Assembly (NCBI GenBank): GCA_963835515.1
Contig: CAWIFX010000043.1
Span: forward strand, 118,261-182,260
From: an uncultured Acidimicrobiia bacterium
Lineage (GTDB): Bacteria > Actinomycetota > Acidimicrobiia > Spongiisociales > JAENVV01
DNA: 64,000 nt
Direction of reading: 5' to 3'
The notes beneath the pieces are model-generated. The model saw only the letters and a program-made list of their open reading frames with translations, had not been told where the DNA came from and did no database searches. Positions 20,165 through 45,039 of this stretch are shown here, piece after piece (positions within the stretch are counted from its first letter, which is position 1; the number at the start of each line of letters is the position of its first letter). The translations under genes and the position numbers were made by a program.

Positions 20165-20878
20165 GTGATGGGAGCGGCCCATCTCATTCAATCGATCGCG
20201 GTCCTGTTCCTCGCCAACGACTTCTCGCTTCCGGTGGTCGGCTCCTTCCTGTCCGGCCCGCCTGGATCGGGGGATTTCGAGGTTGTCAACCTGTTTGATG
20301 TGCGAGTGGCCTACGGGGTTGCTGGCTTCCTGTGGCTTTCGGCAGCTGCCCATTTCCTCGTGGCGTCGCCGGGTATCAACGATTGGTACAACCGGAATTT
20401 GGCACAACGTCGCAATTACGCTCGATGGATCGAATACTCGATCAGCTCATCGTTGATGGTCGTGCTGATCGCCATGCTCACTGGTATCGCCGAAGTGTCG
20501 GCACTTGTAGTCATCTTTGGCGTGAACGCGTCGATGATTCTCTTCGGATGGCTCATGGAAAAGTATGAGCAGCCCGGCTCGACCAACTGGCTCTCATATT
20601 GGTTCGGAGTTATTGCTGGCCTGTTTCCCTGGCTGGCTATCGGCATCTATCTCTGGACACCTGGGTCGGAGTCGTCACCTCCAGGGTTCGTCTATGCGAT
20701 CTTTGTCTCGCTCTTCGTGTTCTTCAACACGTTTGCGGTGAACATGGTGCTCCAGTACCGCCAGACCGGCAAGTGGCGTGACTACATCTACGGGGAGCGC
20801 GCCTACATCTGGTTGAGCCTGCTCGCTAAGTCAGCCCTCGCCTGGCAGGTATTCGGAGGAACCCTCGCCACCGGGTAG
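20165..20878 (+). CDS. Heliorhodopsin (7-TM retinal-binding protein with inverted topology)
   Basis: 237 aa with 7 TM helices. Matches hallmark heliorhodopsin blocks recalled from HeR 48C12: RW(I/V)EYS(I/L)SSS with the counterion Glu, FGVNASMILFGW, GERAYI(W/V)LSL(L/V)AKSALAWQ(V/I)F with the Schiff-base Lys in TM7, and (P)GFVY(A/G)I. Confidence 0.8.
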   Translation: MMGAAHLIQSIAVLFLANDFSLPVVGSFLSGPPGSGDFEVVNLFDVRVAYGVAGFLWLSAAAHFLVASPGINDWYNRNLAQRRNYARWIEYSISSSLMVVLIAMLTGIAEVSALVVIFGVNASMILFGWLMEKYEQPGSTNWLSYWFGVIAGLFPWLAIGIYLWTPGSESSPPGFVYAIFVSLFVFFNTFAVNMVLQYRQTGKWRDYIYGERAYIWLSLLAKSALAWQVFGGTLATG

Positions 20879-20917
20879 TGGCGTTTCAGTTCTGCTGGTG
20901 TTGGGTAAGCCCCGTCC

Positions 20918-21571
20918 ATGGGCGTATTCGAGCTGGATCGGGATGAACAGGGTCGGGGCGTAGCTCCTCAGGAGCTTCGTTGGGCGTTGGCTGGCGGAGC
21001 GCTGGTCGCCATTTTCGGATTCGGAATGATGGCTATCGCCGGTGGTATCTCCTCGTTCGAAGCCCGCAATCTGCTCGACGCAGCCCTTCCAACCATTCGA
21101 TTCCTCGCCTCGACGCTGGTCGCCGCCTCGACAACGATCCTTGCGCTGATGCTGGCGCTCATCGGCATCACGGCCAGCCACGACGCCAACTTCAAACCGG
21201 GATTCTTCAAACGCATACGACAGATCTCGACGCTGTGCATCCTGCTTCTCGCAGGTTCGGCACTGCTGTTGCTGTTCCTGACGGTCCCGATCGACGAGGC
21301 GGAAGGAATACAGCGTCGCTACGAAATCGTCTACTACCTCGTACTGGCCGGGGCAGCTGCCTCAACCGGGATGCTCGTGACGGTCATGCTGATGCTTCGA
21401 TATGCGGTCGAAGGAGTTATCGACGTGTTGACGCCCGGTGCCGACAGTCCGTTCGTGATGGATGAGGAAGACGCCGACGAAGGACACGAAGAAATCTCGG
21501 CGTTGGTCACTGACCCGACCACTCCCGTGGTGAGTGAGGCCGAGCTAGTTAGCGATCGAAACGCGAATTGA
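20918..21571 (+). CDS. Hypothetical polytopic membrane protein (acidic C-terminal tail)
   Basis: 4-5 TM helices. An internal ~75-nt stretch (21170-21245) recurs at 93% identity at 31741-31815. Confidence 0.5.
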   Translation: MGVFELDRDEQGRGVAPQELRWALAGGALVAIFGFGMMAIAGGISSFEARNLLDAALPTIRFLASTLVAASTTILALMLALIGITASHDANFKPGFFKRIRQISTLCILLLAGSALLLLFLTVPIDEAEGIQRRYEIVYYLVLAGAAASTGMLVTVMLMLRYAVEGVIDVLTPGADSPFVMDEEDADEGHEEISALVTDPTTPVVSEAELVSDRNAN

Positions 21572-21928
21572 CGACGACCGCTCGTTCGACTCGAAAGTGA
21601 TATCGGTAGCCACCGATCCCAGCACCATGCCCCCGATGGAATCACTCCAATCGACAGGGGGCCATGCGTCGGCCGATGTTTCTACTGACATGACGAACTC
21701 AACTGTGTGGGCGTTCCCTGCCAGAGCCGTACGGAGGGTGGTGTCGGTCGCCAGATCTAGGAGCGCCGTAGCGGATTCATCAATGGCCAGGCCAAGGTCC
21801 TCGACCCGGTCATAACCGAGGCCGGCCAGGTCGGCGGCTCGATTCGCCATGGACCGGACCACCCGTACCATCGCCGGATGGCCGGGCAGTTCCACAATCA
21901 TTGTCTCCGGGGTCGCAGGGTGTTCCAT
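21545..21928 (-). CDS. Anti-sigma regulatory factor, RsbW/UsfX-like with degenerate ATPase motifs
   Basis: ~128 aa with fold-level resemblance to GHKL anti-sigma kinases (…DLGLAIDESATALLD…), but the N-box Asn/His are absent. Divergent from the STAS gene. Confidence 0.45.
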   Translation of the reverse strand: MEHPATPETMIVELPGHPAMVRVVRSMANRAADLAGLGYDRVEDLGLAIDESATALLDLATDTTLRTALAGNAHTVEFVMSVETSADAWPPVDWSDSIGGMVLGSVATDITFESNERSSSIRVSIAN

Positions 21929-21966
21929 GGCTCGTATACTACGGCACCATCCAAGGGGAGGTCTCG

Positions 21967-22302
21967 TTGACACATCTAACGATTGAACAAAGTGAATCGA
22001 ACGGCAAGTGTGTCCTGACTACCGTCGGAGAGATTGACCTGGCCTCAGCGCCAGATCTGGAAAGTCGGCTCAGCCAGTGCTTGGGTGACGGACCGGTGGT
22101 AGTCGACCTGTCAGCGGTTTCCTTTATCGATTCGACCGGGCTGCGCGTACTCCTGGCTGCTCACTCGGGGGCCGGTGATGGCGGTAACGAGCTCGGACTC
22201 GTCGTGACCGACGGTCCCGTCACCAAACTCTTGTCGATAACGGGTGTTGATGGACACCTGAATATCTTCCGATCGGTGGATGCCGCCAGTTCTGATGCGT
22301 AA
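21967..22302 (+). CDS. STAS-domain anti-sigma-factor antagonist (RsbV/SpoIIAA-like)
   Basis: …VDLSAVSFIDSTGLRVLL… is the STAS signature with the phosphorylatable Ser in DST. TTG start preceded by AAGGGGAGG RBS. Confidence 0.75.
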   Translation: MTHLTIEQSESNGKCVLTTVGEIDLASAPDLESRLSQCLGDGPVVVDLSAVSFIDSTGLRVLLAAHSGAGDGGNELGLVVTDGPVTKLLSITGVDGHLNIFRSVDAASSDA

Positions 22303-22684
22303 TCAGCCTGACGGTCCCTTTAAGCTGATAATCCCAAGCAGCGCGGATCACGTCGCCACGGCTCGCTTGTTCATCGCCAGTCTGGGAAGGACGCTCGGAC
22401 TGCATGCCGAGGTGATCGATGATCTGCGGTTGGCTGTCTCGGAAGCCGTAACTGCCGCGATTCTTTCCGCCCGGTCATCCGAAGTCACCATCAGTGGGAC
22501 GATCGGCCCCGAAGGCGTCTCGGTGCGAGTTGGGCCGCTCTCTGACAATGGTGCCGCAGGCGAACCCGCCCCAACCGATCAGCCCTCCCTCGATCTCGGA
22601 TCGATCGTTCGGGCGCTTTTTCACAACGCTGCGTTTGAAGGAGATACGTTGGTTATTGCCGTCTCGTGGCGACCGCCCACATGA
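22295..22684 (+). CDS. Anti-sigma regulatory factor, RsbW-like (degenerate ATPase motifs)
   Basis: Overlaps the STAS stop (ATGCGTAA) and the sigma start (ATGA). …DDLRLAVSEAVTAAIL… is an N-box-like region lacking Asn/His. Confidence 0.5.
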   Translation: MRNQPDGPFKLIIPSSADHVATARLFIASLGRTLGLHAEVIDDLRLAVSEAVTAAILSARSSEVTISGTIGPEGVSVRVGPLSDNGAAGEPAPTDQPSLDLGSIVRALFHNAAFEGDTLVIAVSWRPPT

Positions 22685-23409
22685 CCGGTTCGGTCGAACA
22701 CGAGAACTGGTTCGACCGGCGCGACGATCCTGACGTCAGGCGTCAGATCGTTGAACGGTACGACGCGCTCGCCATTGGACTGGCCCAACGATTCCGGGGG
22801 AGGGGCGAGGCGACCGATGACCTGGTTCAGGTTGCTCGATACGGTCTCCTGAAGACTATCGATCGGTTCGACGTATCGGTCGGTGTGCAGTTCTCGACGT
22901 TTGCGACGAAGTCGATTCTCGGCGAGCTCAAACGCCACCTTCGAGACAAGGCTTGGTCGGTCCGGGTTCCGCGGTCGCTGCAAGAGACTTACTTGCGAAC
23001 CGGTCGAACCGTCGAAGAGTTGACCCAGAAACTAGGTCGCTCGCCGACGATTGCCGAGATTGCCGAGGAGCTGGAGATAACGGCTGAAGAAGTCCTCGAC
23101 GCCATGGATGCCGGCTCGGCCTTCACGGCAGCTTCGCTCGACCTGCCGGTCGGCGACGATGACGGTGGCTCAACGCTCGGCGACCTGTTGCCGTTCGAAG
23201 ACGAGATCCTTGGTCGATCAGACGAACGGGCCACGGTGTCGGAACACTTGAAGGCGCTTCCGGAGCGGGAACGGCAAATCATCTATCTCAGGTTCTTCGA
23301 AGCCAAGTCGCAGCGGGAGGTCGCCGACGAACTCGGCATATCTCAGATGCATGTTTCCCGACTCTTGAGGAAAGCTCTGTCGGACCTTCGGGTAGCCATC
23401 GACGCTTAA
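22681..23409 (+). CDS. Group 3 sigma-70 factor, SigB/SigF/SigG family
   Basis: Regions 2.x (…DLVQVARYGLLKTIDRFD…), 3 and 4 (…QREVADELGISQMHVSRLLRKAL…). Last gene of the STAS-RsbW-sigma operon. Confidence 0.85.
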   Translation: MTGSVEHENWFDRRDDPDVRRQIVERYDALAIGLAQRFRGRGEATDDLVQVARYGLLKTIDRFDVSVGVQFSTFATKSILGELKRHLRDKAWSVRVPRSLQETYLRTGRTVEELTQKLGRSPTIAEIAEELEITAEEVLDAMDAGSAFTAASLDLPVGDDDGGSTLGDLLPFEDEILGRSDERATVSEHLKALPERERQIIYLRFFEAKSQREVADELGISQMHVSRLLRKALSDLRVAIDA

Positions 23410-23722: not shown

Positions 23723-23880
23723 GATTGATCCTCCTATTGGTTGGGCTTTCTTGTTGCCGGCCTGTACCCCGTGTCCTGGGAATCCAAACATGGTTCTTCT
23801 TCCTTTTCGGTGTTCTTTCTCTCCACGTTTGAAGCCTCGCTTGGAGGGGTAGGACAGGCCTACCTAGTGGAGGGCATTGG

Positions 23881-26385: not shown

Positions 26386-26886
26386 ATGTTTTCATTAAGC
26401 CCGGTTCCCCCCGGCGACCTAACCCAAGCCCGAATCGAGGGCCTTGCCGAAGATGCAGTACCCGGAGACGTGGCGGTCGAACTCGAGCATTGGGATGTCA
26501 AAGGCTGGTTCATCGATGTCACATTCGGCGTGCTGGCCGTTGTAGCCGGCGTGGCCGGTCTGGTCCTCCCGTTTCTGCCGGGATGGGCTCCGATCATCGG
26601 AGGAGTCGTGCTTTTGGCAGGCCGCATTCCGCCGCTCCGCCGCTTGCTGAGCCGCTTCATCATGCTCTCGCCGTGTCAGGGATTCCTCGATCGGTTGGCC
26701 CGGAATCCGAAACTGAGAAAGGTGATGGCCAAGGCACTCCTCCGCAAGAAAGTTCGCAGCGCCGTTGAGCCGAATGCCCGGCGTGAAATGGTAAATATCC
26801 TGGTCCGCAACGACGCCGAGAAGGCGGGGACCGGAGAAACGAATGCAAACACCGATCAAGCCTACGGCGGGGATAAGATGGTCTAA
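26386..26886 (+). CDS. PGPGW-type small membrane protein
   Basis: Two TM helices with the LPFLPGW motif and a basic C-terminus. Confidence 0.45.
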   Translation: MFSLSPVPPGDLTQARIEGLAEDAVPGDVAVELEHWDVKGWFIDVTFGVLAVVAGVAGLVLPFLPGWAPIIGGVVLLAGRIPPLRRLLSRFIMLSPCQGFLDRLARNPKLRKVMAKALLRKKVRSAVEPNARREMVNILVRNDAEKAGTGETNANTDQAYGGDKMV

Positions 26887-27836
26887 TGGATTGGTATCTG
26901 GACGACGGCGACAGCGAAGGCGCCACGGTCATCCGTCGCGAATTCGTCGATTATCTTCGCCGGCATGCCGACCCGTCCTCCGAGATTGATCTCGCCGCTC
27001 TGGCTTTCGCTGAGCTGGTCAACAACGGAGTGGAACACGCCGGAGGCCCGGTTTGGGTCTCGGTCGACTGGGCAGGTCGTCATCCGATCGTCTCAGTCAA
27101 TGATCTCGGGTCTTCCTTCCAGATGAGCGAGGTTGCAATGCCTGACCCAACCGCGGTCAGGGGACGAGGTCTAGCCATCGCCGCTGATCTGGCCGCCAGG
27201 CTCGAGGTGGCTCAAAAAGCCGGCGGCGGTGCCCGGGTTGAGGCCGAACTCAACGTTGATCGAGGTGACCAGCAGGATCTGGATCCGCCGCGCCGCACCC
27301 GCAACGTGCTCCCTGATTTAGCCGAAGCCGGTCCGGACGGTTTCGGCAGAGAGTCCTTCCTTCGGTCACTGGTGGTCCAAATGGCACAGGGGGTCGAACA
27401 CGCTCTCGGACCCATGGCGGCGGAGTCGGCGGTTGCCCAGGTGGGCGCCGATGTGGGTGGCCAGATGGAGACCGAGTTTCGATCGAGTCACCCCGGGCTT
27501 CGTGAGCTCATGACCCCCACCGAGACTGGCGACTGCTATGTGCGGCTCAAGCAAGCCATCGGTGGTGATTTCTACGTGCTGGAGGCCGACGAGGATCGAA
27601 TCGTTTTGGCCAATCGGGCGTGTCCGTTCGGTGAGGCAGTCCTGCGAGCTCCTGCGCTATGCCGGATGACTTCGAGTGTTTTCGGGGGAATCGCGGCTCG
27701 CAATTTTGGTGAGGCGACCGTGGTGCTTGAGGAGCGGATCGCGGTTGGCGACCCGGCGTGCCGCGTCGTTGTCTACCTCGGCGAGCAACCCGAGATTCCG
27801 CACGGGCATCGCTACCAGGCGCCAGTCCGTACCTAA
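26886..27836 (+). CDS. RsbW-type GHKL ATPase (anti-sigma regulatory factor-like) fused to a C-terminal V4R (4-vinyl-reductase-type small-molecule-binding) domain
   Basis: Intact N-box ELVNNGVEHAGG and a G-box-like region in the N-terminus. The C-terminus (…ANRACPFGEAVLRAPALCRMTSSVFGGIAARNFGEATVVLEERIAVGDPACRVVV…) fits the V4R Cys pattern. Confidence 0.6.
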   Translation: MDWYLDDGDSEGATVIRREFVDYLRRHADPSSEIDLAALAFAELVNNGVEHAGGPVWVSVDWAGRHPIVSVNDLGSSFQMSEVAMPDPTAVRGRGLAIAADLAARLEVAQKAGGGARVEAELNVDRGDQQDLDPPRRTRNVLPDLAEAGPDGFGRESFLRSLVVQMAQGVEHALGPMAAESAVAQVGADVGGQMETEFRSSHPGLRELMTPTETGDCYVRLKQAIGGDFYVLEADEDRIVLANRACPFGEAVLRAPALCRMTSSVFGGIAARNFGEATVVLEERIAVGDPACRVVVYLGEQPEIPHGHRYQAPVRT

Positions 27837-28798
27837 GCCAAGTAGTCTTCGGCGCCTTCCCTCACCGTCGCGTCGACGATCGCCGGACCATCTCCAACGA
27901 CGGCTAGAACAGCTCGCACCAATGATGATGCTGTCGGACTCCCGGCTGCCTCGGATCGGCGCTGTTGCCAGTCTGCCTGGTCGCGGAGAATGGCAGGCTC
28001 GTCGCACAGCAACGCGGCATTGAGGCATCGCAGCATCCAGACACCATCGAGAACCGCCTCGGTGGGCAGGTTCTTGATGGTGTCAGATAGCCGGGCTGCC
28101 AGCCTGTGGATCCGCAGGTCGAGCCATTCAAACCCTTCGGAGCGCTCGTGCGTGACGGGACCGACTGGAGCGGCCGGAACCTTCACAGATTCGATGGCTC
28201 GGCCGAGGTCCCGGATGTCGCGGCCGTATGCGTTGGCTCCCAGCAGTAGGGCGCGTTCGGCGGTCACGGCCGACCCGCCCATCACCACGGGCGTTCCCGA
28301 TTCGCGGGCAGTTGCCGCCATGCGACGAGCGCCAGGCAGGTTGCCGACCATCTGGCAGGACACGGTTATGCATCGGGGTGCCAGCTCGTGCAGAAAGGGG
28401 AGGAGCTGGCCGGGTGGGATCGGACCGTCCAGCGTGACAGTCTCAAAGCCTTGTGAACGGAGAGCTTGGGAAACCATTGAGAGACCCAACGTATGCCACT
28501 CGCCCTCGGCGCTCGTGACGAGAACCTCGCCAGGGGCGGTGGACTCCCGATCCACGTCGAGTAAACCGATCGTCTGCGACGTTATCGCCGTTGCACGATG
28601 CTCCTGGGCAACATTCCAGACGCCGCTTTCCCATTGAGACCCAACCCAATGTTGGGCCGGCGCAAGTAGCAGATCCATCAGCTCCGGTATCGCCATCCCG
28701 CCGGCGAGGGTCTGGTCGACCTGCGCCTTGAATGCCCGTGCGTCGAATCGGTTGAGCGCGTCGATGAGGTCGGTGCGGATGGCTTCGACAGCCGTCAT
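27833..28798 (-). CDS. Stand-alone cobalamin (B12)-binding domain protein, CarH/LitR C-terminal-module-like (no DNA-binding domain)
   Basis: N-terminal four-helix B12-binding-2 cap (…WVGSQWESGVWNVAQEHRATAI…) and a Rossmann B12-binding domain with an E-x-H-x-x-G variant of the DxHxxG motif (EGEWHTLGL). Overlaps the upstream PP2C gene stop by 4 nt. Confidence 0.65.
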   Translation of the reverse strand: MTAVEAIRTDLIDALNRFDARAFKAQVDQTLAGGMAIPELMDLLLAPAQHWVGSQWESGVWNVAQEHRATAITSQTIGLLDVDRESTAPGEVLVTSAEGEWHTLGLSMVSQALRSQGFETVTLDGPIPPGQLLPFLHELAPRCITVSCQMVGNLPGARRMAATARESGTPVVMGGSAVTAERALLLGANAYGRDIRDLGRAIESVKVPAAPVGPVTHERSEGFEWLDLRIHRLAARLSDTIKNLPTEAVLDGVWMLRCLNAALLCDEPAILRDQADWQQRRSEAAGSPTASSLVRAVLAVVGDGPAIVDATVREGAEDYLA

Positions 28799-30459
28799 AA
28801 AGCTGTGATCGCCAGAACGGTGATGTCGTCTTGGGACTTGCCGGCCGACCAGCCGTCAACTGCTGAAGCAATGGCATTCGAGATGGCCTTCGCTCCTGAG
28901 GCCGCCGCTGCGGAAGCGGTCTCGGCCAACCGATCCCGGCCGAACTCCTCTACGCCAAGACGGGCTTCGATGACCCCATCTGAGAACAGAAGCAGGGTAT
29001 CGCCGGGTGACAGTACGCCAGTGGTCGGGATCCACTCGGCGTCATCCATGAAGCCGAGTAGGACGCCGTGTGCATCGATGTCGCGTGTGGTGCCATTCGC
29101 GCAGATCACCATGGGGGCCGGGTGGCCGGCGGATGAGACCGAGTAGCGATGAGTGCCATCAGGGTCGGTGTCGATCTGGGCCAATACCAAGCTCGCGAAC
29201 GGGCGATTGTCCTGGGAACGGAGCATCTGGTTGATCGTACGGATAGTCGTGTCGGGGCAGCTACCGGCCAATGAGGCTGCTTTGACGGCCGAACGCATGA
29301 GTCCGGCCTGGGCAGCCGCGACAATGCCCTTCCCGGTCATATCGCCGATGGCCGCTATCGACCTGGTCGGGGACAGGGCGAAACAATCGTAGAAATCGCC
29401 TCCGAGAAGGGAAAGGTTCGTGGCGGCCTGGTAACGGGCAGAGGTCTCGAAAGATATGGGGGCCTCGAGAATGGTGGGTCGCACGGACGACACCAGTAAA
29501 TTCGTTACCGAAGCCTGTTCTTGAAAGAGCGCTGCATTGTCCAGGGCCACGGCCGCCCGGCGGGTGATGGCCGTGATCAGGGCGAGGGCCCGATCCGACC
29601 AAACTCCATCGTCACGTTCGACGAGGACGCTGCCGATTCTGACGCCTCGAGCCGCGATCGGGACGACCGTTCCGGATGCACTTGGGGATCTCGCCGGGTG
29701 GGGGGTCATCTCGGTGAGTTCGTCGTAGCCGACCTTACCCGATGCGTGGGCCAGTCGGTGCTCGGTAAGTTCCTTGAGCCTGCCCAGGGTCACGAGACGA
29801 CCCTGGTTGTTCGAGACGGCGGTCGCCACCTGTCCAGACAGAGCATCGGTTTGAAGATCGACCGTGCATCGATCCGCCAGGCTGGGTGCGATCAAGCCAG
29901 CCAAACGGTCAAGAATCCGGTCGACATTCAGTGCTCCCGAGAAGCTATCGCTGGCTTCGATGAGAAGAGCCAGATCCTGTTCGGTGGCGGTACGGGCGGC
30001 GTCGGCTGCCCGCTCGGCGATGCGCAGGCGGTCCCGTTCCAGTTCGACAGAGCTGCGTTCCGTGACGTCGTACACGACCCCGTAACCCGCCACGGGGACA
30101 CCATCCTCGACCTCGATGTGGCCTTGACCCTCGACCCACCTCACCACCCCCGACGGGTGGATGATGCGATGCTTGGTCGTGTAGTCCCCTCCGCGTTCGG
30201 CGAGACCCGCAACCAGTCCCGTGACGTCCTCGAGGTCATCGGGATGGATGAGCGCCGAGTATTCCTCGAATGTCCCGGCAAATCCGGTGTCCGTCACCCC
30301 GTAAATGCGCCGGGTGGTTTCGTCCCAGTTCACCTTGCCGGAGGCTGGGTTCCAACTCCACGTTCCGATGCCTGCAGCCGAGAGCAGGGCAGCCAGGTCG
30401 GGTGGTAGACGATTTGAAGGTGGCACGACAAGATCATAGGCGTTAGGCGGAGAGCCCAT
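28795..30459 (-). CDS. PAS-GAF-PP2C (SpoIIE/RsbU/RsbP-like) serine phosphatase
   Basis: N-terminal PAS (…WSWNPASGKVNWDETTRRIYG…), central GAF, and C-terminal PP2C metal-binding blocks (…GGDFYDCF…IGDMTGKG…FSDGVIEA…DDITVLAI…). Confidence 0.8.
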   Translation of the reverse strand: MGSPPNAYDLVVPPSNRLPPDLAALLSAAGIGTWSWNPASGKVNWDETTRRIYGVTDTGFAGTFEEYSALIHPDDLEDVTGLVAGLAERGGDYTTKHRIIHPSGVVRWVEGQGHIEVEDGVPVAGYGVVYDVTERSSVELERDRLRIAERAADAARTATEQDLALLIEASDSFSGALNVDRILDRLAGLIAPSLADRCTVDLQTDALSGQVATAVSNNQGRLVTLGRLKELTEHRLAHASGKVGYDELTEMTPHPARSPSASGTVVPIAARGVRIGSVLVERDDGVWSDRALALITAITRRAAVALDNAALFQEQASVTNLLVSSVRPTILEAPISFETSARYQAATNLSLLGGDFYDCFALSPTRSIAAIGDMTGKGIVAAAQAGLMRSAVKAASLAGSCPDTTIRTINQMLRSQDNRPFASLVLAQIDTDPDGTHRYSVSSAGHPAPMVICANGTTRDIDAHGVLLGFMDDAEWIPTTGVLSPGDTLLLFSDGVIEARLGVEEFGRDRLAETASAAAASGAKAISNAIASAVDGWSAGKSQDDITVLAITAL

Positions 30460-30502: not shown

Positions 30503-31489
30503 ATGTCGGGCCTATGGGAGAAAATTCAGGAGCGGATCGCGCCGCTGTTGGCCGTCGTGGAACGGTATGGCAGCGATCATGGCGCCCGGTTGGCCGCGTC
30601 GTTGGCCTATCGAGCGGTTTTCGCCCTGGCTCCCTTGCTGCTCGTCGCCGTTTCTGTAGCTGGATTCGTGTATGGGACGGCAGATGCCCAGGCTCGCCTG
30701 GTTGCAGAGATCCAACCGTATGTCGGCGCAGAAGCCTCATCATTGGTTTTTGATTTGCTCGATCAGGCAGCGGCGAGTCGCAACTCGACGGGCATCATCG
30801 GGCTCCTGCTCATGACGTGGACGGCGAGCGCCTTGTTCCTGGAAGCACAGGGCTCGCTCAATCTCATTTTCGGGTCGGATCCGACCCCCAAAGGCGGGGT
30901 AGGGGCGTGGATTCTCAGACGAGCCCTGGCGGTCGCGGCCGCCCTATCGATGGGAGTTGTCCTGCTCGTGGTGATCGGCTCTGGGGCGGCCTGGGGCATG
31001 GTCGAATCGCAGGTTGACCTTGCCGAACCGGTCAAGCAGGTATTGGATTGGCTCACACCCGTCGTGGCATGGCTGGTTCTCGCGGGACTGTTCACGATTG
31101 TCTTCCGGTTCGTCCCGAGTCGCGACATTCCGTGGCGAGGTGCCAGGATTGGTGGAGCAATCACCGCGGTCGGGTTTGCGGTCGCCTCGCTGGTCATCGG
31201 CAGCTATTTCAACCCGGAGCGGTTTACTGGCACCGGCTTTGCCGGTGGTTTCGTACTGATTCTCTTCAGCGTTTACGTACTCGCCCAGGTTGTGTTGTTT
31301 GGCGCCGAAATCATTGATGTGCATCTGATCCATGACGCTCAGGCGCCGGTTGAGGAGGCGGCGGCCCCGTTTGCCCCAACAATGCCAACCACCGCTGCAA
31401 ACGATCCGGGAGCGACGCCGGTCGGATGGTTCGCAGCCGGGCTGGCAGTTGGGGCGTATCTGGTGGCGAGGATTCGGCCCGAGAAATAG
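30503..31489 (+). CDS. YihY/BrkB (ribonuclease BN-like) family membrane protein
   Basis: …SLAYRAVFALAPLLLVAVS… and six TM helices. Its 3' ~250 nt are part of repeat copy A. Confidence 0.8.
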   Translation: MSGLWEKIQERIAPLLAVVERYGSDHGARLAASLAYRAVFALAPLLLVAVSVAGFVYGTADAQARLVAEIQPYVGAEASSLVFDLLDQAAASRNSTGIIGLLLMTWTASALFLEAQGSLNLIFGSDPTPKGGVGAWILRRALAVAAALSMGVVLLVVIGSGAAWGMVESQVDLAEPVKQVLDWLTPVVAWLVLAGLFTIVFRFVPSRDIPWRGARIGGAITAVGFAVASLVIGSYFNPERFTGTGFAGGFVLILFSVYVLAQVVLFGAEIIDVHLIHDAQAPVEEAAAPFAPTMPTTAANDPGATPVGWFAAGLAVGAYLVARIRPEK

Positions 31490-31752
31490 GCTTCCGGCAA
31501 ACCCCGCACTCAAGATTCCCCGGCTGTCAGCCGCAGTTATCTAGATAGCAGACTTTGTCCCAGAACTGGCACCAACTGACGGAACTGTAGAGAAAAGCTG
31601 GGTCATCCGTTCAACCGAACAGAACTTTGTTCGGTTCATGCGCGATATCGGGCTCGGCCTCTCTCCGGTTTTCTTCGGCATTGCGCTAGTGACCGGTGAG
31701 CCTGCCTTCCTATTCCTGGCGGCGCTGGCGGCGCTGTCCGGTATCACGGCCA
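31240..31752. repeat. Direct repeat copy A (~513 bp, ~85% identical to 33869..34390): yihY 3' end plus intergenic region plus the first ~130 nt of the histidine-kinase ORF, fused at 31741-31815 to a ~75-nt fragment 93% identical to 21170-21245
   Basis: Seen by direct alignment of nucleotide strings. For example, …GGCTTTGCCGGTGGTTTCGT(A/T)CTGATTCTCTTCAGCGT… and …GTTCGGTTCATGCGCGAT(A/G)TCGGGCT… are shared. Chimeric ORF 31638..31919 results. Confidence 0.8.
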
Positions 31753-31943
31753 GCCACGACGCCAATTTCAAACCGGGATTCTTCAAGCGGATACGACAGA
31801 TATCGACGCTGTGGAGGCGCGGCGGCCATTTCGTCGACGAGTTCGCCGGTTTCCTGACCCAGATCCTCGACGCGTTCGGACCGGCCGGCTGGCTCTCCTC
31901 TCACCATTACTTTGGCTAGCTATTTTGGACGGCGGGCGAAGGC

Positions 31944-33302
31944 CTAGACGACGCCGTAGGCGAGCATGGCATCGGCGACCTTGACGAAGCCGGCGATGTT
32001 TGCGCCCTTGACATAGTCGATGTGATCGGTTCCTGGTGAACCCCCGTACTCGACACAACGCCCGTGGATCGCGGCCATGATGTCGACGAGGTGCTTCTGG
32101 AGCTCGTCTTCTTTCCATGAGATGCGTGCCGAGTTCTGGCTCATCTCGAGGCCCGACACCGCAACACCACCGGCATTGGCCGCCTTGCCAGGAGCAAACA
32201 GGGTCTGGGCATTCTTGAAGCAGTGCACGCCGTCGAGATCCGTCGGCATATTTGCACCCTCGGACACGGCCTTGACGCCGTTGGCGACAAGCGTTTCGGC
32301 GTCGGCGCCGACGAGCTCGTTCTGGGTTGCGCACGGCAACGCAACGTCGCACGGGACCCCCCACGGGCGCTTTCCCTCGTGGTACTCCGAGCCGCTGAAC
32401 TGCTCGGTGTATTCCTGGATACGGCCGCGCCGTTCGCCCTTGAGAGCCTTGACCCATGCGAGCTTCTCTGCGTCGATCCCGGCGGGGTCATGGATGAAGC
32501 CACCCGAGTCCGAGAGCGTGACGGCGGTGCCGCCGAGGTGGTTGATCTTTTCGACCGCGTGCAATGCGACATTGCCCGAGCCGGAGACGACGCACGTCTT
32601 TCCTTCGACGCTGTCGCCGATATGCGTGAGCATGTTCTCGAGGAAATACACCGCGCCGTGGCCGGTCGCCTCGGTGCGGATGAGGCTGCCGCCGAACTCG
32701 AGGCCCTTGCCGGTCAGCACGCCCGTGAAGTGGTTGGTAATGCGTTTGTACTGCCCGAACATGTAGCCGATCTCTCTTGCCCCGACGCCGATGTCACCGG
32801 CCGGCACATCGATGTCGGCGCCAACATGGCGGTAGAGCTCGGTCATGAACGACTGGCAGAAGCGCATTACCTCGTGGTCGCTCTTGCCGCGGGGATTGAA
32901 GTTCGATCCGCCCTTGCCTCCGCCCATCGGCAAACCCGTGAGGCTGTTCTTGAACGTCTGCTCGAACGCCAGGAACTTGAGCACGCTCTCGGTCACCGAA
33001 GGATGGAAGCGCAGACCGCCCTTGTACGGGCCAATCGCATTGTTGTTCTGCACGCGCCAGCCGCGCTGAACTCGAATGTTGTTGTTGTCGTCTTCCCAGC
33101 AAACCCGGAAACTCACGACCCTGTCCGGCTCGGCGATGCGGCGAAGGATCTGGTACTCGTGGTACTCGTCCTTGTCCAATGTGTAGTCGAACACATCTTC
33201 GGCAACTTCTTGCACGGACTGCACGAATTCGGGCTGGCCCGGATTCCGCTTGCGCACCCCTTCGATGAACTGCGCGAGATCCGCATGCTCAGTAGCGGTC
33301 AT
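31944..33302 (-). CDS. gdhA: NADP-specific glutamate dehydrogenase
   Basis: Glu/Leu/Phe/Val dehydrogenase signature (…LPMGGGKGGSNFNPRGKSD…) and NAD(P)-binding GxGNVA (SGSGNVALHA). Start at internal ATG with AAGGGGGAA RBS; a GTG 60 nt upstream is an alternative. Confidence 0.9.
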   Translation of the reverse strand: MTATEHADLAQFIEGVRKRNPGQPEFVQSVQEVAEDVFDYTLDKDEYHEYQILRRIAEPDRVVSFRVCWEDDNNNIRVQRGWRVQNNNAIGPYKGGLRFHPSVTESVLKFLAFEQTFKNSLTGLPMGGGKGGSNFNPRGKSDHEVMRFCQSFMTELYRHVGADIDVPAGDIGVGAREIGYMFGQYKRITNHFTGVLTGKGLEFGGSLIRTEATGHGAVYFLENMLTHIGDSVEGKTCVVSGSGNVALHAVEKINHLGGTAVTLSDSGGFIHDPAGIDAEKLAWVKALKGERRGRIQEYTEQFSGSEYHEGKRPWGVPCDVALPCATQNELVGADAETLVANGVKAVSEGANMPTDLDGVHCFKNAQTLFAPGKAANAGGVAVSGLEMSQNSARISWKEDELQKHLVDIMAAIHGRCVEYGGSPGTDHIDYVKGANIAGFVKVADAMLAYGVV

Positions 33303-33448
33303 TAGTTCCCCCTTCGAGACCACGGACGTACCCGCAATGGCTGCCGACAGTACCAGTCGCACCTCACCACCGCATCGGGCCGACTCTCCAGAGGGTCAGT
33401 TCGAGGATCGTAGATGGCTCCGAGTATCGGTATTCCACACAGAGTACG

Positions 33449-33868: not shown

Positions 33869-34390
33869 TTGAAGCACAGGCTTTGCCGGTGGTTTCGTTC
33901 TGATTCTCTTCAGCGTGTACGTTCTCGCCCACGTCGTGTTGTTCGGTGCCGAGATTATCGACGTGCATCTGGTCCCTGACCCCCGAGCATCGGCCGACGA
34001 TGCTGCGGCATCGTTCGTCCCGACGGACGTGCCGGAAAGTCCGAGCGAGCCGGCCGCCACAACGGTCGGATGGTTCGCAGCCGGGCTGGCGGTTGGAGCC
34101 TATCTGGTCGCAAGGATTCGGCCCCGGGGATAATCTGATCGGGCAAAGGTGGCGCTCAAGATTGCCCCGACGTCAGCCGAAGTTATATAAATGGCAGACT
34201 TTGTCCGGGATTCGGCGTTAACTGACAGAGCTGGAGCGAAAAGCTCGGTGATCCGTTTGACCGAAGAGAGATTTGTTCGGTTCATGCGCGATGTCGGGCT
34301 TGGCCTGTCTCCGGTCTTTCTTGGCATCGCACTGGCGACTGGCGAGCCTGCCTTTCTATTCCTGGCGGCTTTGGCCGCGTTGTCAGGTGC
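33869..34390. repeat. Direct repeat copy B (~522 bp), containing an orphan yihY 3' fragment (ORF 33915..34133) and running into the 5' end of the hybrid histidine kinase gene
   Basis: Aligns with 31240..31752 and encodes …VLFGAEIIDVHL…GWFAAGLAVGAYLVARIRP…, nearly identical to the YihY C-terminus. Confidence 0.8.
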
Positions 34391-37300
34391 CATGGCCTTT
34401 CTTCAGATTCGTATTGGACGGGTTCGAGCCGCGGTCCTGATGATCGTGGTCGTGACGCTGGCAGCTGCACAGACGTTTACGCTCGACCCGGCGGTACTTG
34501 AAGCGTTATGGGTGGCGATCGCGGCCCTGGGTGCCATCGGCAGTTCCTTTGTCTCTTCCCGGAGGCGATGGAGCTATCACACGTATGTCGGGCTCATCTG
34601 GATTGCCCAACCGCTGTTTCATCGCCATGACGAAAAAGCCTTCTTTATGGCCGTCCAGCTTTGCGTGTATTTACTCATCGCACTTGGTCTCCGGCAAACA
34701 CTCCGGTCGTTGGAGTCCACCGAGCACCGCTATGAGAATCTGTTTCTCAAGACGCCGATCGCCACGTTCCAGGAGGACTTCTCCCAGGCGGCTCGGTGGC
34801 TTGAAAGTCTCCGAGCCGACGGTGTCGAGGATCTGAAGGCTCATCTCGATGACAATCCTGAGCTGGTCAGGTACGCGTTCGGGCTCATTGGCGTTGCTGC
34901 CGTCAACGACGCGACCGTCGAGCTTCTCGGGGCCACGAGTGCCGACCAGTTGACCGGCACCCTTAACCCCGATCACTACCGATCCGAGACGCACGACAGC
35001 GTCGTCGCCCAGTTGCTCGGCATATGGAATCGGCAGGAATCTGTCGCCACTGAGATGGCCGGGCAAACCTTGCAGGGCGAAGATATCGACTGCGTTCTGT
35101 ATTGGACCGCGCCGCGCACCCGAGCCGGGTTTGACTATTCGAAAGTGGTCGTCTCGCTCGTAGACGTCTCGCCGCTCAAGGCGTCTGAGCGCGAGGCCAA
35201 GATGCAACTACGCCTGGCCAAACAAGAGCGTCGGCTGCAGATTATCGCTTCCAACGCGACCGACCTTCTGTTCATTCTGGGCAGTGATGGGAAGGTCTCC
35301 TGGATATCGGCGTCTGTTACCCGTCTGCTGGGCTATGAGATTCCCGAGATGATCGGTAAAGCGTTCCACGAGTTTGTTCACGCCGAGGATGCGGCAGCCA
35401 TCGTGGGTGCCGGGGTTGCGCTTGCCTCCGGTGACACCAGCGATCCCGTGGTACACCGGGTGCGTCACAACGATGGCTCATGGCACTGTTTTGAAGCGAC
35501 GGCTCGGAACATGGTCGATGATCAGTTTGTTGAAGGCTATGTCATTTCGTCGCGTGACATCACGGATCGGGTGGGCGCCGAGGAAGCTTTGCGTGACAGC
35601 GAGGCGCGTTTCCGGTTGATGGCCGAAAACTCCACCGACATGATCTCGAGCCACGATCCATCCGGGGTATACCGGTACGTATCGCCGGCTTCGATGCGTC
35701 TGCTGGGGCGGTCCCCCGAGGAGATCGTGGGGCTAACTCCTTATGATCTCGCCCACCCCGATGATGTAGCAGGCATGACTGCCGCTCATCAGAGCGCTTT
35801 TGAAGCCGGCAAGGACATCGTCACTGTCGACTATCGCATGGCGCATGCAGACGGATCATGGCAATGGTTTGCCTCCAACTTCAAGATGATCTTTGAGGAG
35901 GGGAATCAGGAATTGGTGCGGCTGCACGCTTCGACGAGAAACATTTCCGAGCGCAAACAAGCCGAGGAAGCCCTCGTTGAAGCCAAGGTGGCCGCCGAGC
36001 GCGCCACCGAAACAAAATCTCAGTTTCTCGCCAACGTCAGCCACGAGATCCGCACCCCGATGAATGCGATCCTCGGTATGACCGAGTTGGCTCTCGGCAC
36101 CGAAGTAACGGCCGAACAGCGCGAATACCTGGTTACGACGCGGAGTTCGGCCGACGCTCTGATCACCCTCGTCAACGACCTGCTGGACATCGCAAAAATC
36201 GAGGCCGGGAAGCTCGAGTTCGAGGCGATACCGTTTGAGCTTCGTGACACGCTCAGCGACACATTGAGAACCCTCGGTGTGAAAGCTTCTGAGAAGGGTA
36301 TCGCTCTTACCCAGGATGTTGCTCCATCTGTGCCGGCTGTCCTGGTCGGCGATCCGGGACGGGTGCGGCAGATCCTCTTCAACCTCGTCGGAAATGCCCT
36401 CAAGTTCACCCACGAGGGGAGCGTCCGTGTCGGGGTCGAGGTAGTCGAAGAGTCGGATCAGGCAGTTGACCTGCATATCTGGGTGGAAGACACCGGGATT
36501 GGCATCCCACCGGACGGGCTCGAATCCATTTTCGAGGCGTTCTCGCAAGCGGAAGGTTCGACCGCCCGGCGGTTTGGTGGGACCGGTCTTGGCCTATCGA
36601 TTTCGACCCAACTCGTGAAGATGATGCAAGGCAAGTTATGGGTTGAGAGCGAAGTCGGCGTTGGCAGTACTTTCCACTTCACGGCCAAGCTTGCGCTAGC
36701 TCCGCTCGAAAGCGAATCTGAATCGGATGCCGTGGGCAGCGCGACCACCGTGCTGGTCATTGCAGACAGCGAAGAAGCCCGCCGCGGCACCACCGAGATG
36801 CTTCGGCTGGGAGGCTTGCGCTCGATTGTTGCAAACGACCTGGCTGGCGCTCTCGACCTAATCTTCGAGGCCGGTCATGCCCACCCGAGACCGGGCGCAG
36901 TTGTTATCGATGTGCGGGCCGGGACCGCCGAGCTCGCCAGCCGGCTCGTCAAAGAACCCACCTTCAAGGACTTGCCCATTGTGGTGCTTACGCCAACCGG
37001 CGAACGCGGCGACGCAGCCGTCTATCGGGCGGCGGGTGCTGCGGGCTACCTGTCAAAGCCGTTGGGGGCGGGTGAACTCAGCGACACGATTGCGGCCGTT
37101 TCGGGCGGCACCCGACCGGACGGCGAATTAGTCACCCGTCATTGGTTGCGGGCCCGACGACCCCGGATGAACTTGTTGGTGGTCGATGACAGTGCGACCA
37201 ATCGGACCATGGTGACCCGGCTCCTCGAGAAACGGGGTCATACGGTGACCGTTGCCGAGAATGGCCGGGACGCCGTTGAGTTGGTGCTGGCCATCAAGTT

Positions 37301-37916
37301 CGATGCAGTGCTGATGGACGTCGAAATGCCCGAGATGGACGGACTCGAAGCAACCTCCACGATCCGCGGTCAGGAGACGGGTCACATCCCGATCATCGGA
37401 TTGACCGGACGTGCGTCTGAGGAAGACCGGCGGACCTGTCTCGATAGCGGCATGGACAACGTGGTGTCGAAACCGTTCCGACCCGAGGCGCTGTTCACGG
37501 CGGTGGAGCAGGTCTTCAATGGACTCATTGACATTGATTCGATTCCGAAACGCCAGGGACGCCCGGCTGATCTGCTTGACCGATTTGAAGCGCTCGAACG
37601 ACTCGGCGGAATGCCCGATCTGGCCGTCGAGTTGATGCAGGAGTTCCAGAAGGAGTACCCGGTCGATCTCGAGTTGATTCGCGAGGCCTTTGCCGCCCGG
37701 GACTTTCAGCGCGTGTCGCGAGTCGCCCATCGAATGAAGGGCAGTCTTGGGCTGCTTTCGGCAGGCCCTGCCGCCCAGGCAGCCGCACTGCTGGAACGGC
37801 ACGCGGCAGATGGCACTGGGCACGCCGAAACGGCGTGGAAGCTCCTGCAAGAAGAGATGGAAAGCCTCGAGCCGGTAATTGTCAGACTGGCCGAATCGGC
37901 CGGAGCTTGGGCTTAG
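34191..37916 (+). CDS. Hybrid sensor histidine kinase: N-terminal membrane domain, three PAS domains, HisKA/HATPase_c, two receiver domains, C-terminal HPt
   Basis: H-box SHEIRTPMNAILGM, N/G-boxes (NLVGNALKFT, GGTGLGLSIS), REC Asp blocks (LVVDDSATNR…VLMDVEMPEMDG) and HPt (…RVAHRMKGSLGLL…). The true start may be the internal Met at ~34284 because the upstream part lies in repeated sequence. Confidence 0.85.
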   Translation: MADFVRDSALTDRAGAKSSVIRLTEERFVRFMRDVGLGLSPVFLGIALATGEPAFLFLAALAALSGAMAFLQIRIGRVRAAVLMIVVVTLAAAQTFTLDPAVLEALWVAIAALGAIGSSFVSSRRRWSYHTYVGLIWIAQPLFHRHDEKAFFMAVQLCVYLLIALGLRQTLRSLESTEHRYENLFLKTPIATFQEDFSQAARWLESLRADGVEDLKAHLDDNPELVRYAFGLIGVAAVNDATVELLGATSADQLTGTLNPDHYRSETHDSVVAQLLGIWNRQESVATEMAGQTLQGEDIDCVLYWTAPRTRAGFDYSKVVVSLVDVSPLKASEREAKMQLRLAKQERRLQIIASNATDLLFILGSDGKVSWISASVTRLLGYEIPEMIGKAFHEFVHAEDAAAIVGAGVALASGDTSDPVVHRVRHNDGSWHCFEATARNMVDDQFVEGYVISSRDITDRVGAEEALRDSEARFRLMAENSTDMISSHDPSGVYRYVSPASMRLLGRSPEEIVGLTPYDLAHPDDVAGMTAAHQSAFEAGKDIVTVDYRMAHADGSWQWFASNFKMIFEEGNQELVRLHASTRNISERKQAEEALVEAKVAAERATETKSQFLANVSHEIRTPMNAILGMTELALGTEVTAEQREYLVTTRSSADALITLVNDLLDIAKIEAGKLEFEAIPFELRDTLSDTLRTLGVKASEKGIALTQDVAPSVPAVLVGDPGRVRQILFNLVGNALKFTHEGSVRVGVEVVEESDQAVDLHIWVEDTGIGIPPDGLESIFEAFSQAEGSTARRFGGTGLGLSISTQLVKMMQGKLWVESEVGVGSTFHFTAKLALAPLESESESDAVGSATTVLVIADSEEARRGTTEMLRLGGLRSIVANDLAGALDLIFEAGHAHPRPGAVVIDVRAGTAELASRLVKEPTFKDLPIVVLTPTGERGDAAVYRAAGAAGYLSKPLGAGELSDTIAAVSGGTRPDGELVTRHWLRARRPRMNLLVVDDSATNRTMVTRLLEKRGHTVTVAENGRDAVELVLAIKFDAVLMDVEMPEMDGLEATSTIRGQETGHIPIIGLTGRASEEDRRTCLDSGMDNVVSKPFRPEALFTAVEQVFNGLIDIDSIPKRQGRPADLLDRFEALERLGGMPDLAVELMQEFQKEYPVDLELIREAFAARDFQRVSRVAHRMKGSLGLLSAGPAAQAAALLERHAADGTGHAETAWKLLQEEMESLEPVIVRLAESAGAWA

Positions 37917-44239: not shown

Positions 44240-45039
44240 AGCACTCCTTGGTGCGTTAGGGCGGCGATATCCATCGTCGCCGCTACCGCGATGTGGAGGG
44301 CGGCACCCCACCACACCGAATTGGTTCGTAGAGATAGCGTACCCAGTGTTACCCCGCCCAGGATGGCGCCAAACGCCTCGGCCAAGGGTTTTGCAAAATG
44401 AATCATGTTGTAGGGGATCACCATGACGAAAATGGCGGCGTAGCCCATGCGCCATTTGAGCCCATGGACCATGAAGCCGCGAAAGAAGAACTCGAGCGCA
44501 ACGAACTGGGCGGCATACATGACCCACCAAATAACCATGTTGGGCCACAAGCCCTCACCGGGGAGTAGGTCGTAGAACGGGTACTTGGCGAGAAATGCCG
44601 GTGAGAATGACGCCCAGATCACTACCGGCAACGAGATGAGAAACAGCAGGACATAAGGCTTCCAGTGGGTGGCGATCCCCCGAAGAGCCACGCCGAATTC
44701 TGCGACCGGTTTTCGGATCAAAAACTTGATGGCGATCACGGGAAGCGCCACGTAGGCGAACAGCTGCACGAGTGTCCAGACGGTCAGCCGGGCGAGCTGG
44801 GCGCTGTCGGGCGACGAAAGCCAGCGGTCCACGGAGGTCGGATTGAGTCCCACTCCTCGGATGAACCCGCTCACCCAGGCCGGATCCTTGGCGAAGAAGT
44901 TGATCACTGTGAGCGCCACGGCCGAGGTGAGCGCCACGATCACCATCATCCGGTTGGCCTCACCGGGTGTCCTGCGGCGGTAGTCGTCAGACGCCGCATC
45001 GGCGGCGACGGCAGTCTGGCGAACGTAGGTGTCGAACAT
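44230..45039 (-). CDS. CPBP-family (CAAX/Abi) intramembrane metalloprotease
   Basis: Motif 1 ALEFFFRGF (E-E-x3-R variant), motif 2 FxxxH, and motif 3 HIAVAATMD in a 7-TM protein. Confidence 0.7.
   Translation of the reverse strand: MFDTYVRQTAVAADAASDDYRRRTPGEANRMMVIVALTSAVALTVINFFAKDPAWVSGFIRGVGLNPTSVDRWLSSPDSAQLARLTVWTLVQLFAYVALPVIAIKFLIRKPVAEFGVALRGIATHWKPYVLLFLISLPVVIWASFSPAFLAKYPFYDLLPGEGLWPNMVIWWVMYAAQFVALEFFFRGFMVHGLKWRMGYAAIFVMVIPYNMIHFAKPLAEAFGAILGGVTLGTLSLRTNSVWWGAALHIAVAATMDIAALTHQGVLWP

Follow-up and report, generated by a model that had tools for sequence, protein, structure and literature searches.

A stand-alone photocobilin gene overlapping a PAS-GAF-PP2C phosphatase gene in an Acidimicrobiia genome: a likely light input to a STAS/sigma-factor cascade

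What does a B12-binding protein without a DNA-binding domain regulate, when the start codon of its gene overlaps the stop codon of a phosphatase gene? The question is raised by a 64,000-nucleotide (nt) stretch of DNA from an uncultured Acidimicrobiia bacterium (GenBank assembly GCA_963835515.1, contig CAWIFX010000043.1, positions 118,261 to 182,260), referred to as the window throughout, in which a gene for a protein of 321 amino acids (aa) follows a gene for a PAS-GAF-PPM serine phosphatase of the SpoIIE/RsbU type (PP2C) on the same strand (Table 1). A sequence-only reading of this DNA had described two open reading frames (ORFs) with a 4-nt overlap; both are present, and the letters ATGA are common to the stop of the phosphatase gene and the start of the smaller one. 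The 321-aa protein is a photocobilin. The best explanation of the locus, to which we give a probability of roughly 0.6, is that this stand-alone photocobilin, a CarH-type adenosylcobalamin (AdoCbl) module joined to a photoglobin, controls the phosphatase upstream of a STAS/sigma-factor cascade.

The family of the protein was assigned from its domains, its closest relatives of known structure and its predicted fold. Both a helical cap and a Rossmann B12-binding domain are found by Pfam above the respective cut-offs, in agreement with the sequence-only reading, and neither Pfam nor NCBIfam detects a MerR or other helix-turn-helix (HTH) domain, also as claimed; the cap begins directly at the protein start. 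In a sequence search of the PDB (phmmer) the top matches are the two structures of SasPcob, the photocobilin of Saccharothrix syringae (8J2W, dark; 8J2X, light; E = 1.7e-25). The aligned region spans residues 6-303, so that the C-terminal domain is included. AbPcob (8J2Y) matches with E = 7.8e-20, and CarH, LitR, and corrinoid carrier proteins rank after the photocobilins with E values of about 1e-9 to 1e-10. When the C-terminal half alone was submitted, SasPcob was the only PDB match. The AlphaFold2 (AF2) model of the protein, built on 18 homologues, has a mean predicted local distance difference test score (pLDDT) of 91.8 and a predicted template-modelling (TM) score of 0.89, and ends in five helices (residues 220-320), in keeping with the globin domain of photocobilins, which packs against both B12 sub-domains. 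Full-chain comparison by Foldseek gives query-normalised TM scores of 0.82 for 8J2X, 0.80 for 8J2W, and 0.86 for 8J2Y over ~330 columns, the last being the best structural match with a root-mean-square deviation of ~2.8 Å, whereas the CarH structures cover only ~200 columns, that is, the first ~200 residues, with a TM score of 0.52. The NCBIfam model for CarH scores 57.6 bits against a cut-off of 400, and the NCBIfam corrinoid-protein models score 28-41 bits against cut-offs of 215-450.

The ~120-aa C-terminal domain, previously described as being of unknown function, does exist, but it is recognisable as a photoglobin that matches those of SasPcob and AbPcob. With a photoglobin at its C terminus the protein is a photocobilin and not of the AerR/LitR type: the earlier proposal was right about a B12 photoreceptor module without a DNA-binding domain and wrong about the family. 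All sequence- and structure-level features of membership are found, except for one Asp whose placement depends on the alignment (see below).

A photoglobin domain coupled to B12-binding domains was predicted by Schneider et al. in 2021 (PMC8717448), and photocobilins were characterised only in 2024, when Zhang et al. (PMC10979010) reported that SasPcob and AbDPcob bind AdoCbl and biliverdin, and that in these homologues the Co-C bond is cleaved by green light, acting directly on AdoCbl, or by red light, acting via biliverdin. In the same work SasPcob was a dimer in the dark and a monomer in the light, with the light state activating an enzyme, and stand-alone photocobilins, shown acting on a borrowed diguanylate cyclase, were found able to alter enzyme activity by protein-protein contact.

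Residue correspondences were taken from an L-INS-i alignment of 79 sequences, comprising the query, SasPcob, and 77 homologues from species-representative genomes. The numbering of the SasPcob paper equals the PDB chain index plus 6, consistently for all five residues named there. Trp56, Glu66, His67, Glu100, and His102 are invariant in 79/79 sequences and correspond to SasPcob Trp61, Glu71, His72, Glu106, and His108 (the axial ligand), and the same five residues (W56, E66-H67, E100-x-H102) align with W131, E141-H142, and E175-x-H177 of TtCarH. The idea that the motif His sits in the cobalamin-ligating position therefore survived the alignment that was proposed as its check. The accompanying claim, that E-x-H-x-x-G in place of D-x-H-x-x-G is a deviation, did not: since TtCarH itself reads E-R-H-E-I-G at this place, the Glu is the norm of photoreceptors with the CarH-type signature, and it is invariant in the whole alignment. 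The elements GxxW, EH, and GxxH, which separate photoreceptor B12 domains from enzymatic ones, are all present (G53-x-x-W56, E66-H67, G99-x-x-H102); the fourth element, GxxxP, is matched loosely by the aligned D124...P128, and another fit is offered by G125...P129. Glu57 stands where TtCarH has His132, the residue that becomes the upper ligand on illumination, in a column that holds A, Q, E, L, or V across the family, and a bis-His light state is therefore not expected, as in SasPcob. Of the bilin-related residues, Trp277 corresponds to SasPcob Trp296 robustly across alignments, Gln131 takes the place of SasPcob His137, which forms a salt bridge to a bilin propionate, and the alignment shows no Cys at the distal position, the same as in SasPcob. 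The photoglobin domain probably holds biliverdin.

A comparison with the characterised proteins puts these results in context. SasPcob shares with the 321-aa protein the three-domain architecture and a nearly equal length, as well as the axial His, the W-x9-EH pocket, and the Trp contact, while the Asp contact is shared in the L-INS-i alignment only; the identity between the two is only ~26-28%, and His137 is Gln131 here. AbDPcob (8J2Y), a fusion of a photocobilin to a diguanylate cyclase from an Acidimicrobiaceae bacterium, comes from the same bacterial class as our source, and experiment shows its photocobilin part switching the enzyme on with light; its output is a fused GGDEF domain, however, and here the phosphatase is separate. 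In AbPcob, a weak binder of biliverdin, Asp270 is replaced by His, whereas the Asp is kept here, as far as the alignment can be relied on. CarH and LitR (5C8D, 3WHP) have in common with the protein the fold of the B12 module, the ExHxxG axial His motif, and the W-x9-EH pocket, but the MerR HTH and an equivalent of His132 are lacking here and a photoglobin is added; their output is DNA, and here it would be a protein partner. AerR and PpaA, which are stand-alone B12-binding antirepressors of CrtJ/PpsR acting by protein-protein contact, resemble the protein only in this general logic, as their target is a transcription factor, and to our knowledge no photoglobin domain has been described for them.

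If the output is a protein partner, the gene next door is the obvious place to look. A pattern scan over one genome per GTDB species returned at least 560 relatives of the 321-aa protein, of which the best 80 were kept for neighbourhood counts. In 74 of these 80 species-representative loci the next gene upstream, on the same strand, encodes a PP2C homologue. The pairing is far beyond chance, and the suggestion that the two genes are conserved together has thus held up. Among the 74 loci an NTGA overlap is possible in 47 and a 13-nt overlap in 9, counts that are biased somewhat upward because the candidate start codon nearest to the stop was chosen each time; independent gene calls agree with the overlap in the loci checked. 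The pair occurs in Mycobacterium/Mycolicibacterium, Micromonospora, Streptomyces, Pseudonocardia, Nocardioides, and Acidimicrobiia, and in metagenome homologues the order of PP2C and photocobilin and the overlapping stop and start are kept down to 25-33% photocobilin identity. The closest genome relative among the matches listed is an Acidimicrobiia metagenome-assembled genome (MAG) with 75% identity. Saccharothrix has overlapping genes for PP2C, photocobilin, and STAS, arranged in this order; in Saccharothrix algeriensis the gene for the SasPcob relative P0019 directly follows a SpoIIE/PP2C gene and overlaps it by 4 nt, as here, but has STAS directly downstream, where the window has a convergent gene for a kinase-like protein. 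Two apparent fusions of PP2C and photocobilin (L015 and L037) were rejected as MAG frameshifts, because tblastn recovers the PP2C part as two segments that differ in frame, and translation across the junction gives Arg/Pro-rich nonsense.

Actinobacterial operons that join a B12-photoglobin protein with PAS/GAF-SpoIIE and STAS were described by Schneider et al. (PMC8717448), and STAS, SpoIIE, and PP2C are among the predicted SasPcob partners of Zhang et al. (PMC10979010). That such proteins signal to a SpoIIE/PP2C phosphatase has been published before, on genomic grounds. At the locus itself, no Shine-Dalgarno-like sequence is visible just 5′ of the ATGA, a scan for sigma-70 promoters and terminators around the gene pair gave nothing useful, and a scan for GTTT-N13-17-GGGTA found no SigB-type motif 5′ of the phosphatase gene. 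As part of the best explanation, the overlapping stop and start codons probably cause photocobilin and phosphatase to be made in fixed proportion.

The phosphatase gene encodes 554 aa when the longest ORF is taken, and as gene callers give orthologues of 543 aa its exact start is uncertain. Pfam identifies PAS_3 at residues 43-128 (E = 1.5e-15) and SpoIIE/PP2C at residues 365-552 (E = 4.7e-39), with a GAF match below threshold in between (residues 235-306, E = 0.0039). Among 69 orthologous upstream phosphatases SpoIIE is found in 69/69, GAF in 43/69 (best E = 1.8e-9), and PAS_3 in 6/69. The orthologues thus lend support to the weak GAF and with it to the PAS-GAF-PP2C architecture that had been read from the sequence, and they indicate that the conserved partner of the photocobilin is a GAF-PP2C protein, to which the PAS domain is a clade-specific addition; the Saccharothrix pair differs from ours in this extra domain. 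The predicted metal-binding residues D355, D373, D494, D544, and D545 are invariant in the 69 orthologues, and by this measure the catalytic residues are intact. The best PDB match is Rv1364c of Mycobacterium tuberculosis (E = 7.5e-14).

A complete module of STAS antagonist, anti-sigma factor, and SigB/F-type sigma factor, the kind of cascade on which such phosphatases act, lies 4.4 kb from the photocobilin gene. Its STAS gene is the only one detected in the window; the product carries a phosphorylatable D-S-T-G motif, with some uncertainty about the start codon, and is a candidate substrate of the phosphatase. The RsbW-like anti-sigma factor has neither G-box, and the Asn and His of the kinase N-box are missing as well (SEACTNAVQHA in B. 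subtilis RsbW, 6M36, versus SEAVTAAILSA here), and this loss is kept in the related loci L002, L003, L010, and L020; the protein is probably a pseudokinase. In L010, L011, and L020 the STAS/anti-sigma/sigma operon is directly upstream of the PP2C-photocobilin pair.

The scan for GTTT-N13-17-GGGTA found 4 sites in the window against 0.69 expected, and 0/100 shuffled sequences reached 4; the consensus is the one generally known from promoters of SigB in B. subtilis and of SigF in mycobacteria. Of the four sites, three fall in the photocobilin neighbourhood, and two of these form a divergent pair (Table 1) that holds its position in L002 and L003 despite a changed spacer sequence. In L010, SigB-type motifs also precede a second HATPase_c_2 gene and a ferritin/DUF2383 operon.

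Two known networks resemble this arrangement. In B. subtilis, RsbT-RsbU and RsbQ-RsbP, a small partner controls a sensor-linked PPM phosphatase that acts on the STAS antagonist of a SigB-type sigma factor, and rsbQ/rsbP is, like the pair here, a dedicated pair of a partner protein and a PAS-PPM phosphatase (PMC12143880). RsbT binds the N-terminal domain and linker of RsbU and drives its dimerisation and activation (Baral et al. 2025, PMC12143880), and a scheme of this type was proposed for RsbQ-RsbP and for the PAS- or GAF-linked PPM phosphatases OsaC and Rv1364c in the same paper. The Bacillus partners are a kinase-fold protein and an alpha/beta hydrolase, whereas the putative controlling partner here is a dual-chromophore photoreceptor. 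The SigF network of M. tuberculosis is similar in that its anti-sigma-F RsbW/UsfX (8IH8) also lacks the kinase N-box Asn, in the match of the phosphatase to Rv1364c (3KE6), and in the SigB/F/G family of the sigma factor; Rv1364c fuses phosphatase, kinase, and STAS in one chain, whereas these are separate genes in our locus. We know of no light input to the M. tuberculosis SigF network.

A further candidate component is encoded by the gene convergent with that of the photocobilin, with a 4-nt overlap at the photocobilin stop, which joins an RsbW/RsbT-like HATPase_c_2 domain to a MetOD1 domain. The ATP-binding residues E43, N47, D73, G75, G93, and G95 (N-box and G-box) and a Cys3-His set (C246, C259, C292, H308) are invariant in 32 homologues. 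The C-terminal domain matches the folds of the sensor domains (V4R) of PoxR, MopR, and DmpR, of Bet3, and of H-NOX by Foldseek, and the kinase domain gave no meaningful match in the PDB sequence search. MetOD1 was first defined as an output domain specific to methanogens, and the literature searched yielded no functional study of the HATPase_c_2-MetOD1 fusion in Actinomycetota. The protein is a candidate STAS kinase or phosphatase co-regulator. The gene adjoins the photocobilin gene in L002-L011 and L014 and does so throughout the Acidimicrobiia-like clade. Its family is highly conserved and actinobacterial, with at least 1610 clusters, and the window protein is 53-60% identical to Micromonospora members. 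The idea that it is an obligate part of the system is weakened by the size of the family and by unrelated gene contexts in Micromonospora and Jiangellales, and as the gene stands alone elsewhere its link to the photocobilin system is tentative.

Put together, the following chain of events would account for the locus. Light would turn the photocobilin dimer into monomers, and the changed oligomeric state would alter its binding to the N-terminal sensor/linker region of the phosphatase, switching the dimerisation and activity of the latter as RsbT does for RsbU. The phosphatase would dephosphorylate the STAS antagonist, which would then trap the kinase-dead anti-sigma factor and free the sigma factor to act at GTTT-N15-GGGTA promoters. 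As the anti-sigma factor appears unable to phosphorylate STAS, a separate kinase would be needed, for which the kinase-MetOD1 protein is the obvious local candidate; it may act on STAS in opposition to the phosphatase. The sequence does not reveal the sign of the light effect, activation or inhibition. A bolder version, which we regard as possible but doubtful, takes the locus as the native output pathway of a stand-alone photocobilin in a non-phototrophic host: the photocobilin would gate the phosphatase and the HATPase_c_2-MetOD1 protein oppose it, so that full-spectrum light and a second, chemical signal are fed into a general-stress-type regulon, which may include the kinase's own operon and the membrane protein gene beside the heliorhodopsin gene.

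Several observations count against control of the phosphatase by light through this protein. The match of Asp251 to SasPcob Asp270 is alignment-dependent, being one column off in the HMMER pairwise and a 17-sequence MAFFT alignment, and this column is Asp in only 33/79 relatives, which suggests that bilin binding is not universal in the family. Residue 124 is Asp, where 74/79 relatives have the Gly of GxxxP. The STAS/sigma module belongs at this locus to a different transcription unit, 4.4 kb off, and only the Acidimicrobiia-like clade has the kinase-MetOD1 gene as a neighbour, its contexts in Micromonospora and Jiangellales being unrelated. The ~57 window ORFs scanned include no heme oxygenase, which would supply biliverdin, and no gene for making or importing cobalamin. 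In the literature searched we found no experiment on a photocobilin acting on a PP2C phosphatase, and the role of stand-alone photocobilins is called "less clear" (PMC10979010).

The lack of bilin or B12 supply genes nearby would also fit a chemical ligand sensor that works in the dark and informs the phosphatase of redox state or of how much corrinoid or bilin is available. AdoCbl binding alone lowers the enzyme activity of AbDPcob relative to the apo protein, and the organism relies on AdoCbl for its class II ribonucleotide reductase (RNR); but the full light-responsive signature (GxxW, EH, GxxH) is present, both characterised homologues are switched by light, and a heliorhodopsin gene is nearby, and we consider such a ligand sensor unlikely. 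It is also improbable that the overlap serves co-expression only and that the photocobilin acts directly on another partner-switching component, such as the STAS antagonist or the HATPase_c_2-MetOD1 kinase, instead of the phosphatase. STAS does follow the photocobilin gene directly in many Actinomycetota (Saccharothrix and many Micromonospora loci), and in the Acidimicrobiia-like clade the kinase-MetOD1 gene abuts its 3′ end. These neighbours vary by lineage, however, while PP2C is the constant one; an overlap of stop and start codons favours production in equal amounts, as for the subunits of one complex, and fusions of photoglobin and B12 domains to SpoIIE are on record (Schneider et al., PMC8717448).

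The two remaining alternatives concern the nature of the B12 module itself. An accessory of the AerR/LitR style, controlling a DNA-binding regulator, would fit a stand-alone module without HTH, but no transcription-factor gene is conserved beside the photocobilin gene, the photoglobin domain is absent from the CarH and LitR structures, and Glu57 stands at the His132 position, all of which make it very improbable. A corrinoid methyl carrier of the MtbC/MtaC kind is suggested by the annotation of homologue P0007 at the Joint Genome Institute as "methanogenic corrinoid protein MtbC1" and by a weak match to MttC (E = 2.9e-9), with the NCBIfam corrinoid models far below their cut-offs; the photoreceptor matches score far better, the W-x9-EH adenosyl pocket is present, and the neighbourhood contains no methyltransferase genes, so that this alternative is effectively refuted. 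Control of the phosphatase by the photocobilin is the reading that we retain.

On that reading the locus and its many relatives point to a concrete native partner for stand-alone photocobilins, namely a GAF-PP2C phosphatase that feeds a SigB/F-type partner-switching cascade. If true, this would show how green-to-red light is converted to a sigma-factor response in the Actinomycetota common in soil and water, mycobacteria and streptomycetes among them, and it would offer a light-switchable phosphatase for optogenetics. As the association itself has been published as a genomic inference, the locus adds little that is new in principle; what is new here is the count of how widely the coupling is conserved and a locus-level model with a pseudokinase anti-sigma factor, a candidate separate kinase, and conserved promoter motifs.

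Table 1. Positions, in window coordinates, of the gene pair, its predicted functional sites, and related features
Feature	Position	Strand	Basis or remark
PAS-GAF-PPM serine phosphatase (SpoIIE/RsbU-type PP2C)	28795..30459	-	554 aa as longest ORF
Stand-alone photocobilin gene	27833..28798	-	321 aa
ATGA stop/start overlap of phosphatase and photocobilin genes	28795..28798	-	Read from sequence
Four-helix cap, B12-binding_2 (PF02607)	28559-28774 (residues 9-80)	-	Pfam E 3.7e-10, above cut-off
Rossmann B12-binding domain (PF02310)	28223-28528 (residues 91-192)	-	Pfam E 1.1e-17, above cut-off
Five-helix photoglobin domain	27839-28141 (residues ~220-320)	-	AF2 model, Foldseek
His102 codon, predicted lower axial cobalt ligand, in E100-W-H102-T-L-G105	28493..28495	-	Aligns with SasPcob His108 and TtCarH His177
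Asp251 codon, predicted biliverdin-contacting Asp (SasPcob Asp270)	28046..28048	-	79-sequence L-INS-i alignment
HATPase_c_2 (RsbW/RsbT-like Ser-kinase domain) + MetOD1 (V4R/H-NOX-like sensor)	26886..27836	+	Pfam; 316 aa
STAS anti-sigma-factor antagonist, candidate phosphatase substrate	21901..22302	+	Pfam STAS E 7.6e-19; NCBIfam ant_ant_sig above cut-off
RsbW-like anti-sigma factor	22280..22684	+	Alignment to B. subtilis RsbW (6M36)
SigB/SigF/SigG-family sigma factor	22666..23409	+	NCBIfam TIGR02980 266.9 bits, cut-off 234.35; Pfam r2, r3, r4
SigB/F-type promoter-like motif GTTT-N16-GGGTA	23827..23851	+	5′ of an operon of ABC-2 transporter genes, 166-aa membrane protein gene, and HATPase-MetOD1 gene
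SigB/F-type motif, divergent partner	23765-23789	-	5′ of small Transgly_assoc-like gene
SigB/F-type motif	20883-20907	+	Directly after heliorhodopsin stop, 5′ of 217-aa membrane protein gene
SigB/F-type motif, fourth	44350-44374	-	GTTT-N13-17-GGGTA scan
Heliorhodopsin	20165-20878	+	Pfam PF18761, E 5.8e-99
217-aa membrane protein gene	20918-21571	+	Follows heliorhodopsin gene
Class II B12-dependent RNR with TSCPD domain	6087-9509	-	

The rest of the window bears on the light and cofactor context of the host. The class II B12-dependent RNR indicates that the organism uses AdoCbl; an Rfam scan of the window detected neither a cobalamin riboswitch nor any other RNA family, and carotenoid genes were not among the ~57 ORFs scanned. 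The heliorhodopsin gene, ~1 kb 5′ of the STAS/anti-sigma/sigma operon and ~7 kb from the photocobilin gene, suggests a light-exposed lifestyle; no heliorhodopsin homologue was found within the flanks of any fetched related locus. Homologues of the 217-aa membrane protein that follows it adjoin the kinase-MetOD1 gene in L010, L011, and L020.

Upstream of the phosphatase gene we noticed a diverged direct repeat of ~520 bp with ~80% identity (31230-31751 and 33874-34397), which duplicates the 3′ end of a BrkB-like gene together with the 5′ end of a hybrid histidine kinase gene and flanks an insert of ~2.1 kb that holds a glutamate dehydrogenase gene (31944-33362) and a GAF-domain fragment and is absent in L002 and L003. 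The 100 nt at 31714-31813 are in turn a copy, with 86% identity, of part of the 217-aa ORF (21138-21237). The arrangement reflects either recombination with a related strain or a chimera produced during assembly. Elsewhere, the overlapping ORFs at 10710-11153 and 11084-11614 (minus strand) match the C- and N-terminal halves of a LigD primase-polymerase domain and look like a frameshifted gene or a sequencing error.

Other signalling genes are present as well. The RsiG family of Streptomyces, c-di-GMP-binding anti-sigma factors of WhiG, has a relative at 52408-52932 (plus strand), and a MASE8-linked adenylate/guanylate cyclase is encoded at 45101-46351 (minus strand). The large hybrid histidine kinase at 34191-37916 (plus strand) contains at least two PAS domains followed by HisKA, HATPase, two receiver domains, and Hpt; it is syntenic with the BrkB-like gene and the phosphatase gene in L002 and L003, and shorter matches to its kinase core lie a few kb from the photocobilin gene in several Mycolicibacterium loci.

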